From Chlamydiia bacterium (GTDB taxonomy: Bacteria > Chlamydiota > Chlamydiia > Chlamydiales > Parachlamydiaceae): a stretch of 14,655 nt of DNA. The stretch lies in the NCBI GenBank assembly GCA_038257035.1, contig JBBSJT010000057.1, forward strand, positions 1-14,655, given 5' to 3'. The notes under the pieces are model-generated. The model was not told the DNA's origin, searched no databases, and saw only the letters and a program-made list of their open reading frames with translations. This document shows, one piece after another, positions 5,769 to 11,907 of this stretch; position 1 is the stretch's first letter, and every line of letters begins with the position of its first letter. Made by a program: the position numbers and the translations under genes.

Positions 5769-6085
5769 TTTTCACCACTAAGGTTCCACCGTCCTGGATG
5801 CTCTTTTTACCGCGAAGAGCGCGAAGAAAGACGCGAAGGCACGCGAAGAAGTGCGCTAACGCGCGAATAGAACATACTTACACACACTTCGATTAAACTT
5901 AGGCGCTTATTGTAGTTTTTTTTTCGCGCTTTTAAGCGCGCCTCTTCGCGTGCCTTCGCGTCTTTCTTCGCGCTCTTCGCGGTAAAAAGAGCATCCGAGA
6001 CGGTGGAATCTTCTTCACGGCTTCGCGGTAAAAAAGCTTCCAAGACGGTAGAATCTTCTTCAAGGTGAAGTCTTCGTGGTGAAAA
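5769..6085. repeat. Type A long palindromic element copy 1, nested, with a tandem-duplicated right end
   Basis: Perfect 54-bp IR at 5796-5849 / 5943-5996, extending to 5784 / 6008 with 2 mismatches. Outer IR TTTTCACCAC (5769-5778) / GTGGTGAAAA (6076-6085). Imperfect tandem duplication 5975-6020 / 6021-6065. Confidence 0.92.
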
Positions 6086-6158
6086 CGGGAGGTTGCTATA
6101 AAAAGGTAAGAAGGTGTACATCTTGATTAGACTATTGAATTCAAAAAAAGAGAGCACG

Positions 6159-8828
6159 ATGAAAGATGAATTTCTTTTAAATTCAGGCAATCTAGAAATT
6201 GCAGAAGAAATGTATGCCAAATTCCTCAATGATCAGGCAAGTGTTGACTCGTCTTGGCGATCCTACTTTGAAGACATGGAAATTCCCTTAAAGTCAGTAA
6301 ATAATACAGGAAACGCAGTTGAGAGGGTAAAATCGAGTAATATATCTGAACTGATCAATGCTTATCGAACCCATGGACATCGACAAGCCGGCGTCAATCC
6401 TCTTGTAAATATAACTCAAGATGAATTTGGTTTATTAAACCCAAAAACTTATGGACTTGATGAGAAGATTGAATACCCAACTCATAGGATTTTAGTGGAA
6501 AAAGTAGCTCCTCTTTCTAAAATTGTCGATCGATTAAAAAGCATTTATTCAAATAAAATCGGTATTGAATACATGGGTTTATCAAATCCTCTGCTTGAAA
6601 AATTTATTCAAGATAGGGTTGAGGGACGATCACAACCAGAATTAACAATTGAAGAAAAACAGATGATCTTAAAAAAGCTGAACCAATCGGAGCTTTTAGA
6701 AGTTTTTATTCATACAAAATATGTCGGTCAAAAGCGTTTTTCCATTGAGGGTGCAGAAACCCTTATTCCAATTTTAGAGTCCATCATTGAAAAGGGTGCA
6801 GCGATTGGGGTTGAAGAATTCTTTATTGGAATGCCCCACCGCGGACGATTAAATGTTTTGGCAAATATTTTAAATAAATCCTACAAAGAACTATTTTCTG
6901 AATTTGAAGAGGGTTACATACCGCAATCTTTTGAAGGAAGCGGTGATGTCAAGTACCATAAAGGCTTTTCAAACGATGTAAAAATTAAAGACAAAACAAT
7001 AAAAGTCGCTCTGACTCCGAATCCAAGTCATCTTGAATCTGTGGATGCCGTGGTATTGGGTCAAGTCAAAGCAAGACAGATCAAAAAAGGCTCTCAAAGT
7101 GCTGTTTTACCCATTCTAATTCATGGCGATGCAGCAGTTTCTGGCCAAGGTGTTGTTTACGAAACACTCCAATTTACAAGATTGGCAGGATATTCCACCG
7201 GAGGAACGCTACACATAGTTGTAAACAATCAGATAGGCTTTACAACCATTCCAAGAGATTTAAAATCGACCCTTTATTGCACTGACATTGCTAAAACTTT
7301 TTCGGCACCCGTTTTTCATGTCAATGCAGAGGATCCCGAAAACGCCATATTTGCCACTCTTTTAGCTCTTGAAATTAGGCAGAAATTTTCACTCGATGTC
7401 TTTATAGATTTGATTAGTTATAGGAAGTATGGCCACAACGAAACGGATGAGCCGGCCTTTACACAGCCTCTTGAATACCAAATCATTCGTCAAAAAAAAC
7501 CTGTACGAGAGATTTACAGAGATCAACTGATTGAGGAAGGCGCATTAGAAAAGGAAGTTGCGATGAAGCTTGAATCTGAGTTTAAAGCCTCACTTCTTGA
7601 TGCCCAAAATGCAATTAGAAATTCAAAACCGGACAAAATAGAAAAAGTAAAAAAAATAGCTGATTCTAATGTGAAAACGTCTGTTTCTAAAGACTTAATT
7701 CAGCAATTGGCAAATAAATTTTGTATCGTGCCTCCTGAATTTAATATTCATCCAAAAGTGAAGCAGTTGATCACTAATCGACTGGGGATGGTGATGGAAG
7801 ATAAAAACATCGATTGGGGGATGGCTGAAACTCTTGGACTTGCAACCCTTTTATGGGAGGGTACAAACGTTCGCATTTCAGGACAAGATTGTGGTCGAGG
7901 TACTTTTAGCCATCGACATGGGCTTTTGGTGGATCAGGTAAAAGAAGGGGAGTATTTTCCGCTACAACATTTGAAAGAGAATCAAAGCCGCTTTGACTTA
8001 ATCAATTCACCCCTATCTGAATTTGGTGTTTTAGGGTTTGAATATGGCTATAATATTATGACCATCGAGGACTTAGACATTTGGGAAGCGCAGTTTGGCG
8101 ACTTTGTCAATAGTGCCCAGGTGATCATCGATCAATACATTGTTTCTGCAGAGCAGAAATGGGGGCAACAATCGTCGCTTGTCATGTTTTTACCTCACGG
8201 TTTTGAAGGTCAAGGACCTGAACATTCATCAGGTAGATTAGAAAGATTCTTGTCTCTTGCGGGTAATGATAATATCGTCATCGTAAACCCAACGACACCT
8301 GCACAACTCTTCCATATGCTTCGAAGACATATTTTAGGTAAAACTTTAAAACCGCTCATTGTTTTTACGCCTAAAGGATTATTGCGTCATCCTCTTTGCG
8401 TCAGCAGATTAACAGATTTTACTGATGGACAATTCTTGACACTGATTGAAGATGATGTTAAAAATCCAAAAAAACTGATATTTTGTTCAGGACGCATTTA
8501 TTATGATCTACTTGAAGAGGCTAAAAAAAATAACGTTACAGACGCTGCAATCGTCCGCATCGAGCAGCTCTATCCAATTGATTCTGAAAAGTTAGAAGCG
8601 ATCATAAAAAAACATGCGACGATAGAAAAATATTATTATGTACAAGAAGAACCAAAAAACATGGGTGCTTACTCTTATATTGAACCGATTCTGTCCGAAA
8701 TGTTACAGAGTGGATCAACTTTAGAGTATAGAGGAAGGGATAGAAGCGCATCTCCTGCAACCGGTTCACATGCATTACACGGCCAAGAATTTGAAAACAT
8801 TATGTCGATCATGAAGGATAACAAATGA
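6159..8828 (+). CDS. sucA: 2-oxoglutarate dehydrogenase E1 component
   Basis: Motifs [36 protein letters not shown] (TPP binding), [19 protein letters not shown] 6159 after AGAGAG is preferred over GTG 6114. Confidence 0.97.
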
Positions 8829-10274: not shown

Positions 10275-11666
10275 ATGAAAGAGTATGACGTTGTAGTGAT
10301 AGGAGCGGGACCCGGCGGTTACGTAGCTGCCATACGCGCTGCCCAATTGGGCCTATCCGTAGCCTGCATCGAAAAAGAAAAAGCCGGCGGCACATGTCTT
10401 AATGTTGGGTGTATTCCTTCCAAGGCTCTTTTACAATCTACTGAAATTTACGCATCATTTTTACATGAGGCAAATGTTCATGGTGTAACGTACGAAAATC
10501 TTAAAGCTGATCTTGATGTGATGATGAAACGCAAAAAAGGAATTGTTGAAGGGTTGGTTCAAGGCGTTGAACATGCGCTTAAAAGTAAACATGTGGATTT
10601 TATTGTAGGTTTTGCAAACCTTGTTGACCCTCATAAAATTGAAGTGGTAAGAGGGGAGGAAAAAGAAGAATTTACTGCCAAAAATATTATCCTAGCGACA
10701 GGTTCCGAGCCGGTTTCCCTTCCATTTTTACCTTTTGATGAAAAAAGAATTTTATCGTCAACCGGCGCTTTAAGTTTGTCTGAAATTCCTAAAAAAATGA
10801 TTGTCATTGGTGCAGGAGTCATCGGTGTGGAGCTTGCTTCAGTTTACAGCCGACTTGGAACCGAAGTTGTCATTATTGAGGCGCTCGATCAGATTTGTGG
10901 AGGCTTGGACGATACACTTTCAAGAACGTTTCTTACCGTTTTGAAAAAACAAAATTTGACTTTTCATCTTGGAGCAAAGGTGCTAAGTGGCCAAGCAAAT
11001 AATGATGGAGTAACACTCAATGTGATTTTAAAAGGTATGGAAGAAAAAGAGACTATGCAGGCAGATGTTGTACTAGTTGCCGTCGGGAGACGCCCTTTTT
11101 CTGAAGGACTTAAAAATATAGGCTTGGATTTTACAATACGTGGATTTTTACCTGTTAACAACCGTTTTCAAACTAAAATTCCTCATATTTATGCTATCGG
11201 CGATTTGATTGAAGGCCCGATGCTTGCACATCGTGCCTCTTTAGAAGGTGCGGCAGTTGCTGAGTTGATTGCTCAAAAAGAAACAAGCGTTAATTATTTA
11301 GCCATTCCAAATGTAATCTATACCCACCCTGAATTGGCTTCCGTTGGCTTAACGGAAGCACAAGCAAAAGCCTTTAACTTGGAAATTCTAATTGGAACCT
11401 GCTCTTTTAAAGCTAATCCACGAGCAAGATGCATGGGGGAAACTGATGGTCTTGTAAAAGTGATCGCAGATAAAAAATCAGGCCGCTTAATCGGAATGCA
11501 TATTTTGGGGCCTAATGCCTCTGAAATTATTGCGGAAGGTGTTGTTGCTATTCAAAATAATTTAACGCTTGAAAGCTTGGTAAGGACCCCGCATGCACAC
11601 CCGACCTTAAGCGAAGCTATTTTGGAGGCCGCCGAGAATGCATTGGGTAAGTCGATCCACCTCTAG
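10275..11666 (+). CDS. lpdA: Dihydrolipoamide dehydrogenase (E3)
   Basis: GAGPGG FAD motif, redox motif GGTCLNVGCIPSK, GAGVIG NAD motif, HPTLSE. Confidence 0.97.
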   Translation: MKEYDVVVIGAGPGGYVAAIRAAQLGLSVACIEKEKAGGTCLNVGCIPSKALLQSTEIYASFLHEANVHGVTYENLKADLDVMMKRKKGIVEGLVQGVEHALKSKHVDFIVGFANLVDPHKIEVVRGEEKEEFTAKNIILATGSEPVSLPFLPFDEKRILSSTGALSLSEIPKKMIVIGAGVIGVELASVYSRLGTEVVIIEALDQICGGLDDTLSRTFLTVLKKQNLTFHLGAKVLSGQANNDGVTLNVILKGMEEKETMQADVVLVAVGRRPFSEGLKNIGLDFTIRGFLPVNNRFQTKIPHIYAIGDLIEGPMLAHRASLEGAAVAELIAQKETSVNYLAIPNVIYTHPELASVGLTEAQAKAFNLEILIGTCSFKANPRARCMGETDGLVKVIADKKSGRLIGMHILGPNASEIIAEGVVAIQNNLTLESLVRTPHAHPTLSEAILEAAENALGKSIHL

Positions 11667-11679
11667 CCGACCGCTAAGG

Positions 11680-11907
11680 GGGACCTTTTTACCGCGAAGG
11701 ACGCGAAGAAGCGCAGCTTCGCTGCGGGAAGAAACGCGAAGAAGCGCGCTATCGCGCGATAAAACGAATGTAGAACGGCTTAAAGAACTTAGAAGCCTTT
11801 GCAAAGATCAACAACTTCCCTTTGTTTTTCGCGCGATAGCGCGCTTCTTCGCGTTTCTTCCCGCGCTTTAGCGCACTCCTTCGCGTCCTTCGCGGTAAAA
11901 AGGTCCC
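11680..11907. repeat. Type A long palindromic element copy 3, between convergent lpdA and htpX
   Basis: Perfect 29-bp IR at 11680-11708 / 11879-11907 and perfect 36-bp IR at 11724-11759 / 11829-11864, separated by non-matching mini-hairpins; 69-nt loop. Confidence 0.93.

Follow-up and report, generated by a model that had tools for sequence, protein, structure and literature searches.

Intergenic hairpins of a Parachlamydiaceae draft genome are very probably gene-less relatives of a cassette that frames a GxxExxY-family gene

We analysed contig C57 from the 2.37-Mb draft genome of a Chlamydiia bacterium of the family Parachlamydiaceae (210 contigs, 36% G+C); the window was the whole contig of 14,655 bases. 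Three long hairpins built from short tandem words lie in the spacers beside its sucA, sucB, lpdA, and htpX genes, and these are very probably recently gained, gene-less relatives of a cassette carrying a GxxExxY gene. The best overall explanation, which we consider reasonably probable, is a family of hairpin cassettes whose full-length form is a nuclease gene framed by inverted arms, together with the mechanism of spread proposed below. In what follows, G000 is the genome under study, G001 and G002 are two genomes of the same genus, and L with a number denotes an individual locus.

A repeat search confirmed the three hairpins at the sites named in the initial annotation, with arms of CGCGAAG words at ~9-nt spacing. 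They and the units adjoining them, none of which was assigned a strand, are as follows:

5780-6012: hairpin element 1, gene-less, upstream of sucA; arms 5780-5878 and 5914-6012, outer layer included
6013-6093: degenerate tandem right-end copies of element 1 in ~45-nt units; CTTCGCGGTAAAAAA at 6021-6035 and CTTCGTGGTGAAAA at 6071-6084
10001-10274: entire sucB-lpdA spacer, made up of element 2 within an outer inverted layer (ACATTACCACAAAGAG... / ...TCTTCGTGGTAAAAAAGTAATGT)
10050-10219: hairpin element 2 core; arms 10050-10111 and 10158-10219 (62 nt, 97% complementary)
11667-11938: entire lpdA-htpX spacer, made up of element 3 and a second outer-layer unit (11920-11938) that touches the htpX stop codon
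11674-11913: hairpin element 3 core; arms 11724-11763 and 11825-11864 (40 nt, 98% complementary)

The arms of element 1 are 99 nt long and 85% complementary, with the core of CGCGAAG words beginning at 5804 (TTTTTACCGCGAAGAGCGCGAAG), and element 3 has a further arm pair at 11674-11714 and 11873-11913 (41 nt, 90% complementary). Extra degenerate ends adjoin elements 1 and 2 (6021-6035, 6071-6093, and 10241-10263). With at most one mismatch, TACCGCGAAG was matched 10 times in the window against 0.43 expected, and none of 200 shuffles reached 10. The DNA folding energies of elements 1, 2, and 3 were -104.4, -88.6, and -105.1 kcal/mol, respectively, 19-25 standard deviations below those of 100 mononucleotide shuffles (z = -24.8 for element 1). 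The opening sequence first described, TTTTTACC, was present, but the ends proposed with it were set too far in, as the inverted repeat extends ~22 nt further out.

Across the genome, the arms of the CGCGAAG family share a layout of a T-run, ACC, and then tandem words (ACCGCGAAG, AGCGCGAAG, AAAGACGCGAAG, GCACGCGAAG), the number of which differs among copies. The element ends read TTTTTACCGCGAAG ahead of the words and have no GTAG foot, in line with the initial annotation, and a small GC palindrome (GCGCGCTnnnGCGCGC) closes the arm in many copies. Outside the T-run lies a loosely conserved layer of ~22 nt (consensus roughly TTwwACCGyT..GgGGAyyTT, <0.7 bit per position). When left arms were compared with reverse-complemented right arms in 76 elements of 140-399 bp, the identity of the outer 55 nt was 0.88 within and 0.81 between elements. 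Inward of these 55 nt it was 0.58, against 0.50 for shuffled sequence, and the idea that the whole element is a single long palindrome was rejected. Element 3 has mosaic arms, with GCGCAGCTTCGCTGCG on the left and GCGCTAAAGCGC on the right at the matching place.

The loops are AT-rich as first described (median 27% G+C), but not all of them are unrelated as had been supposed: among 13 loops of at least 30 nt, 6 share a module and 7 stand alone. The module common to six elements includes TTGACAAAACAATTTTACTAAT, and many loops, e.g., at 11796-11806 in the window and in C10:7380-7692, also contain a short perfect palindrome, CTTTGCA(n)TGCAAAG; the loops may carry a signal. At C31:14165-14537, the loop of a CGCGAAG-word element houses a hairpin of GCAAAG words, indicating that loops can receive further hairpins.

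The hairpin family multiplied in this lineage only. The 12-mer TTTACCGCGAAG occurred 184 times in the genome, corresponding to 78 forward-then-reverse pairs and 28 unpaired ends; the pairs span 84-655 bp (median ~204), and several of the unpaired ends are tandem partial ends. A 14-mer end motif, counted as the initial annotation had suggested, was present in 178 copies (90 forward and 88 reverse). Among 40 relatives, two genomes contained one copy each and 38 contained none; the two same-genus genomes, which are 86% and 96% complete, contained 1 and 0 copies, respectively. In a second soil metagenome holding a ~90% identical relative, arm bins had a depth of 99-445 compared with 5-18 over genes, so the family is not an assembly artefact of one sample.

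The sites in relatives were found to be empty. G001 and G002 show collinearity with the window (66-74% DNA identity), and the sucB-lpdA spacer, which is 274 nt here and consists entirely of the element and its outer layer, measures 1 and 4 nt there, respectively; new DNA therefore arrived at this junction, and existing DNA was not merely rewritten. The lpdA-htpX spacer is 272 nt here compared with ~80 nt in G001, and G002 has an unrelated 1.9-kb insert there. On C7, five collinear element-bearing junctions whose spacer in a relative was read had the following lengths:

C7 junction 1: 129 nt in the relative, 362 nt here
C7 junction 2: 246 nt in the relative, 490 nt here
C7 junction 3: 159 nt in the relative, 547 nt here
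C7 junction 4: 410 nt in the relative, 854 nt here
C7 junction 5: 55 nt in the relative, 3593 nt here

The relatives' spacers at these junctions are plain AT-rich DNA without such hairpins, and the same was true of a sixth spacer, from G001, that corresponds to one of these sites. The copies are thus many and absent from relatives, not few and conserved in position, the alternative that the initial annotation had raised.

Among the arm pairs, one was found to enclose a gene, a possibility to which the initial annotation had drawn attention. This full-length copy and a second gene of the same family are located as follows:

C7:930-1584: full-length copy; 42-nt arms, 98% complementary, around an intact open reading frame (ORF) of 135 aa
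C17:14838-15215: second GxxExxY gene; partial left arm, with a complete hairpin of the GCAAAG-word sister family following

The ORF of the full-length copy (C7:1100-1504) matched PF13366 (PDDEXK_3; E = 1.8e-40, 138.9 bits, cut-off 22) and TIGR04256 (GxxExxY protein; E = 1.3e-40, 138.4 bits, cut-off 35), and by these profile matches it is a member of the GxxExxY family. The first 33 nt of the arm are repeated exactly at 9 other places, and GxxExxY is the sole gene found between CGCGAAG arms in the assembly. Sister families with other words were also present in the genome:

CAGTGAG word: 26 pairs
GCAGAG word: 12 pairs
GCAAAG word: 9 pairs
GCAGGAT word: 118 ends

AAAGGAC hairpins were seen too, with a pattern count no better than that of its control. 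At C166:521-802 (L019), the assembly's only 23S_rRNA_IVP gene (four-helix-bundle, S23p-like) has short inverted word arms (AAATTCCAA.. / ..TTGGAATTT) and sits between two host genes; contig C166 may belong to another organism.

The association of a GxxExxY gene with inverted arms of word repeats recurs across bacterial and archaeal phyla. PF13366 was matched in 41 of the 120 scored genomes of the order and in 23 of the 31 genomes of the family; some genomes of the order carry 16-33 matches, and the same-genus genome G002 has two fragments only. Of 31 loci of the order whose flanks were read by eye, most have inverted arms of the same build, and the words seen across the order include CACAGAG, CGCAGAG, CGCAAAG, CACAAAG, CACTGAG, and CGCGAAG. 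More distant relatives were searched with an 8-sequence alignment and one genome per species, giving 587 relatives, the best 80 of which were used for flank tests. These best 80 include Parachlamydiaceae, Waddliaceae, and Chlamydiales metagenome-assembled genomes (MAGs) and, at 54-76% identity, Chloroflexota, Acidobacteriota, Cyanobacteria, Bacteroidota, Planctomycetota, Proteobacteria, Verrucomicrobia, a candidate-phylum bacterium, and the archaeal Methanophagales, Methanosarcinales, and Methanothrix.

With a strict criterion (three or more words C[AG]CN[AG]AG at 7-13 nt spacing within 200 nt of the gene), a run of purine words was found upstream at 47 of these 80 loci and a complementary run downstream at 57. 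Runs were present on both sides at 43 loci, on either side at 61, and on neither at 19, compared with 0 for both shuffled flanks and gene interiors. The predominant word spacing was 9 nt (141 of 227), followed by 8 nt (44) and 10 nt (24). The link between inverted arms of ~9-nt period and GxxExxY genes, which the initial annotation had put forward, thus holds across phyla (61/80 loci). Full-text literature searches, whose coverage is thin for subscription journals, returned no description of this pairing. At L080, in an Abditibacteriaceae MAG from a distant phylum, the GxxExxY gene is flanked by complete gene-less hairpins of the CGCGAAG word (TTCACCGCGAAGGACGCGAAG...); the word was either carried along by transfer or arose twice.

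The protein looks active as a nuclease, a prediction that rests on its invariant residues, a confident structural model, and matches to nuclease folds. Residues G32, G34, E37, Y40, D76, E86, and K88 were invariant in 26 sequences and make up the GxGxxExxY motif and the PD-(D/E)XK catalytic set. Modelling with AlphaFold gave a confident structure (pLDDT 91.9), and its best fold matches, all with middling scores, were BpuSI (Z = 7.8), 3ijm (7.6), SwaI (7.4), a Cas4 (7.4), BamHI (7.0), and Hjc (6.5); the fold comparison supports a PD-(D/E)XK fold and nothing finer. A search of PDB sequences with the 26-sequence profile gave no match at E up to 1, Foldseek gave none against PDB at E up to 0.001, and GxxExxY proteins had no match in PHROGs. 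PADLOC returned weak Cas4 matches only (E ~1e-3), for the C17 protein only. In its available part, a 2012 survey of the PD-(D/E)XK superfamily listed PDDEXK_3 as of unknown function, with multiple transfers between divisions.

The family is confined to the spacers between genes and lies nearer to stop than to start codons. Although 84% of the genome was coding by rough ORF calls, no long ORF contained any of the 78 pairs. The pairs lay in tandem (39), convergent (21), and divergent (14) gene spacers, with 4 at contig edges, and convergent spacers were enriched (21/74 compared with 252/1719 genome-wide, p = 0.003; the genome-wide spacers comprised 1177 tandem, 252 convergent, and 290 divergent). 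Median distances to the neighbouring stop and start codons were 52 and 118 nt, respectively. No sigma-70-like site was found inside the full-length copy, where shuffles averaged 2.0. Across the 91 loci with enough flank, the upstream neighbour ran in the same direction as the nuclease gene in 38 cases and in the opposite direction in 15 (p = 0.002), whereas downstream neighbours showed no bias (29 and 25); where both neighbours were on one strand, the nuclease gene was co-oriented in 17 and opposed in 6. These orientation counts include seven loci from one MAG and are not fully independent. The upstream bias and the lack of a sigma-70-like site fit expression by read-through.

In the mechanism that we propose, the full-length form would be a small PD-(D/E)XK nuclease gene (GxxExxY, PF13366/TIGR04256) between two inverted arms, each made up of a T-run, ACC, and 3-6 words C-R-C-N-R-A-G (here CGCGAAG) 8-10 nt apart. 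The cassette would act as a selfish element without its own promoter, transcribed by read-through from the upstream host gene. The nuclease may cut vacant sites, or else the arms or their vicinity in duplex, hairpin, or cruciform form, after which host repair or replication would copy the element. Gene-less copies could then persist and spread through the arms that they retain, served in trans by a single nuclease gene. The initial annotation had likewise read the hairpins as a non-autonomous family served in trans, and the checks that it proposed turned out in favour of its reading, the service in trans itself being presumed. That the GxxExxY nuclease moves or maintains the gene-less hairpins is, in our judgement, a proposition with even chances. 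The feature recognised is likelier to be the shared skeleton (C.C..AG, ACC lead, T-run) or the structure itself than the exact word.

Several observations weigh against this explanation. A nuclease of ~125 aa has no evident way of joining DNA, and the assembly has two GxxExxY genes for at least five word families. At every boundary tried in 78 pairs and 6 close copies, neither a target-site duplication nor a sharp end was found, and the initial annotation had likewise reported no clear target-site duplication for the window; the outer boundary is fuzzy, and a 2-nt TA duplication may be present. When both flanks of the paired elements were searched by BLAST against the genome (154 queries after length filtering), no adjacent matches elsewhere, and hence no paralogous empty site, were found. 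No strain-level insertion polymorphism was seen in four DNA runs, none of whose contigs bridged an element junction, and no RNA run was found to contain this DNA. Most loops are unrelated while the arms are 75-88% alike, so whole-unit copying alone is insufficient as an explanation. Nineteen of the 80 loci fail the strict word test, several of them showing two or slightly off-pattern words by eye.

The arm word also did not follow the protein tree. On a quick tree of 97 proteins, 75 of them labelled, the word changed 8 times against a shuffled mean of 9.5 and 21 times against 22.1, which lends no support to word-specific recognition by an element's own nuclease. Nor did this tree support the related idea of a separate arm word for every nuclease clade, which had arisen from L051, whose protein is 64% identical to that of the C7 gene and which has CGCGAAG arms, and from six 'GGPG' proteins with AAC-led arms, which may form one clade. 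Furthermore, one Waddliaceae MAG has 7 near-identical gene-bearing copies (L068-L074) within a larger repeat, which extends at least 200 nt past both arms, with identity setting in at TATATACCTCTTC, ~205 nt upstream of the arm. This larger repeat probably represents an insertion sequence (IS) in which the cassette travels as a passenger. Hitch-hiking can therefore be the source of high gene copy numbers, perhaps also in the genomes with 16-33 matches, and multi-copy GxxExxY genes were rejected as proof of cassette mobility for this MAG.

Some of these observations would suit a different enzyme, i.e., a Y1 (RAYT-type) or other transposase or a host recombinase that moves the hairpins, with GxxExxY as cargo or squatter. 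Palindromic repeats served by Y1 enzymes are a known model, and the genome has 9 Y1_Tnp matches at 7 loci; the indifference of the arm word to the nuclease tree, the lack of a cognate nuclease gene for most word families here, and the ride of the cassette in a larger repeat of one MAG all point the same way. However, none of the 7 Y1 loci, which the initial annotation had proposed to look for beside the arms, lies within 2 kb of a CGCGAAG end. Of the three loci examined, two (C105 and C29) lie between long repeats that belong to other families, the family at C29 carrying a GTAG-bearing unit, and the third (C48) has a 21-nt pair only; the distant Y1 genes, two with repeat families of their own, represent a classical-looking REP/RAYT arrangement beside the hairpin family and distinct from it. 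In addition, only GxxExxY was found between CGCGAAG arms, and the gene-arm pairing occurs in bacteria and archaea, which share no single host enzyme. We regard this account as unlikely, if not negligibly so.

A second alternative involves no transposition of whole units: local slippage of words and short-patch gene conversion would frame old, unrelated spacers with look-alike arms. The mostly unrelated loops between similar arms, the differing modules in the two arms of element 3, the varying number of words, and the tandem end duplications are all as expected under such a process, and the unrelated loops and mosaic arms suggest that short-patch conversion also rewrites arms between copies, for which reason we retain this account as a partial alternative. 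As a full explanation it is quite unlikely, given that a spacer measuring 1-4 nt in relatives measures 274 nt here, that six copies at unrelated places share both arms and the loop module, and that an exact 33-mer recurs at 10 places. Finally, the hairpins could be RNA elements that serve the host (RNase III sites, mRNA stabilisers, or intercistronic insulators) and are kept for their effect on neighbours. Their position close behind stop codons and within an operon agrees with this, as does the available text on ORF-bearing 23S rRNA intervening sequences (IVSs), which share the build and are cut by RNase III (PMC4990558). Such a role is nevertheless very improbable, as the elements are absent at the same junctions in same-genus relatives and gave no Rfam family match. 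Mismatches in the arms of 51 distinct gene-bearing loci whose arms could be aligned comprised 71 that form G:U in sense RNA (G:T) and 79 that do so only in antisense (A:C; p = 0.57), and this lack of a sense G:U excess speaks against upkeep of the arms specifically for pairing in sense RNA. Nor are the hairpins intrinsic terminators, given that on both strands the T-run comes ahead of the stem.

The host genes of the window, assigned by domain scan, are as follows:

291-2405, minus strand: ResB-like gene
3198-5270, minus strand: leucine-rich repeat (LRR) protein gene
6114-8828, plus strand: sucA (2-oxoglutarate dehydrogenase E1), beside element 1
8825-10000, plus strand: sucB (E2 acyltransferase), whose stop codon directly touches the element 2 spacer
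10275-11666, plus strand: lpdA (dihydrolipoyl dehydrogenase), between elements 2 and 3
11939-12898, minus strand: htpX-like M48 peptidase gene, convergent with lpdA
12929-14512, plus strand: Sel1-repeat protein gene

As first noted, the window has no enzyme of a mobile element among the 10 ORFs scanned, which gave host-type domains (sucA, sucB, lpdA, htpX, ResB-like, LRR, and Sel1) or none (three ORFs). An Rfam scan of the window gave no family match and no rRNA. The minus-strand ORFs 5807-6229 (140 aa) and 10153-10395 (80 aa) cross hairpin arms and have no family match; they are most likely artefacts of the GAAG/CTTC words.

Other repeats were also observed. A distinct family occupies positions 1-80 at the contig start (CCTAGGGC..GCCCTAGG and GCAGGCTGTAGGCCTGC palindromes), and at C105:2188-2785 a Y1 transposase gene is framed by a unit of this type with 98-nt arms; alongside the nuclease hairpins, the genome thus seems to harbour a REP/RAYT-like system of the classical kind. 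Both ends of the contig are formed by halves of a sister hairpin family (138-194 and 14581-14627; TTTTTACAGGAT..GCAGGATCGC words, 118 genomic ends), which are 27-29 nt long and mutually 93-100% complementary. The assembly evidently breaks in such repeats, and the copy numbers given above are therefore a floor. A 131-nt hairpin at 3069-3199, with perfect 26-nt arms (GATCGCTTTGTAGCGTAGGTTTTAAC) and internal GGTTTTAAC sub-hairpins, belongs to a separate family of ~9 genomic copies. A stretch of 120 nt at C73:11780-11899 is nearly pure G and looks like a sequencing or assembly artefact.

If the explanation that we favour is true, a large and taxonomically wide-ranging class of intergenic palindromes has an owner, namely a nuclease family listed as 'function unknown' in the available part of the 2012 survey, and there would be a lead on the long-open origin of ORF-bearing rRNA intervening sequences. 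For genome work, the hairpins matter in that they break assemblies, as at both ends of contig C57, swell operon spacers from a few bases to ~270, and produce spurious ORFs such as that at 5807-6229 on the minus strand.

The closest known counterparts are REPIN/RAYT systems and ORF-bearing 23S rRNA IVSs. In REPIN/RAYT, gene-less intergenic palindromes accompany one framed Y1 HUH gene, without target duplication and with lineage-specific expansion; the repetitive extragenic palindromic (REP) unit is an imperfect palindrome of 20-40 nt with a conserved GTAG-type foot. The hairpins described here resemble it in their many gene-less palindromes, single framed enzyme gene, lack of a detected target duplication, and lineage-specific expansion. 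They differ in that the enzyme is a PD-(D/E)XK nuclease of ~125-135 aa by its profile matches, not a Y1 HUH protein, and in that the arms, 40-100 nt long, are arrays of 9-nt words in tandem, led by a T-run and lacking a GTAG foot. If true, our reading would place a second repeat-plus-enzyme system beside REPIN/RAYT, one built on another enzyme fold.

Bacterial miniature inverted-repeat transposable elements (MITEs; Correia/NEMIS, RPE, and ERIC) are likewise short, gene-less, hairpin-forming intergenic repeats of high copy number, which share terminal inverted repeats with a transposase-bearing parent IS and make target duplications. The present family shares with them the terminal inverted repeats, the lack of genes, the intergenic location, and the high copy number, whereas no target duplication was found and the parent form holds only a nuclease gene. 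No transposase-bearing parent IS was found between the same ends in the 210-contig draft, in which the largest pair, at 655 bp, is not IS-sized. The family is thus not a MITE of a known IS, and the arms do not correspond to the ends of a known IS with ordinary target duplications, which the initial annotation had considered.

IS200/IS605-type elements are described in the available text of one study (PMC10690162) as hairpin-dependent and free of target duplication, with a TnpB-type nuclease that retains the element by cutting vacant sites. The likeness lies in the hairpin element and the lack of a detected target duplication; here, however, the hairpin is the whole element and not a subterminal structure. 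Neither TnpA nor TnpB was found inside the full-length copy, the ORF of which matched only PF13366/TIGR04256, and the genome was not searched for TnpB.

The 23S rRNA IVS of Coxiella burnetii, as presented in the available text on it, has a 28-bp terminal stem around one small ORF, whose start codon is separated from the stem by an AG-rich stretch and tandem GACAGAT heptamers (PMC4990558). It lies in helix 45 of 23S rRNA, encodes an S23p four-helix-bundle protein, and is excised by RNase III; the same text calls it a selfish element that has no known way of moving and is tolerated inside the transcript, and leaves its origin open (PMC4990558). The long stem enclosing one small ORF and the tandem short repeats, as far as that text describes them, are shared with the present family, whose elements differ in lying between protein genes (sucA, sucB, lpdA, and htpX) and in encoding, in the full-length form, a nuclease. 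More tentatively, and as a possibility that we hold to be somewhat doubtful, GxxExxY cassettes, perhaps with ORF-bearing 23S rRNA IVSs and four-helix-bundle cassettes, may form one undescribed class of selfish elements in Bacteria and Archaea. Each would have a single small gene in a hairpin of short tandem words and would spread by structure-directed PD-(D/E)XK cutting, completed by the repair or replication machinery of the host and independent of any known transposase or recombinase family, gene-less hairpins being the abundant non-autonomous offspring. If true, this one-class reading would account for a considerable part of the intergenic palindromes left unexplained in many genomes.

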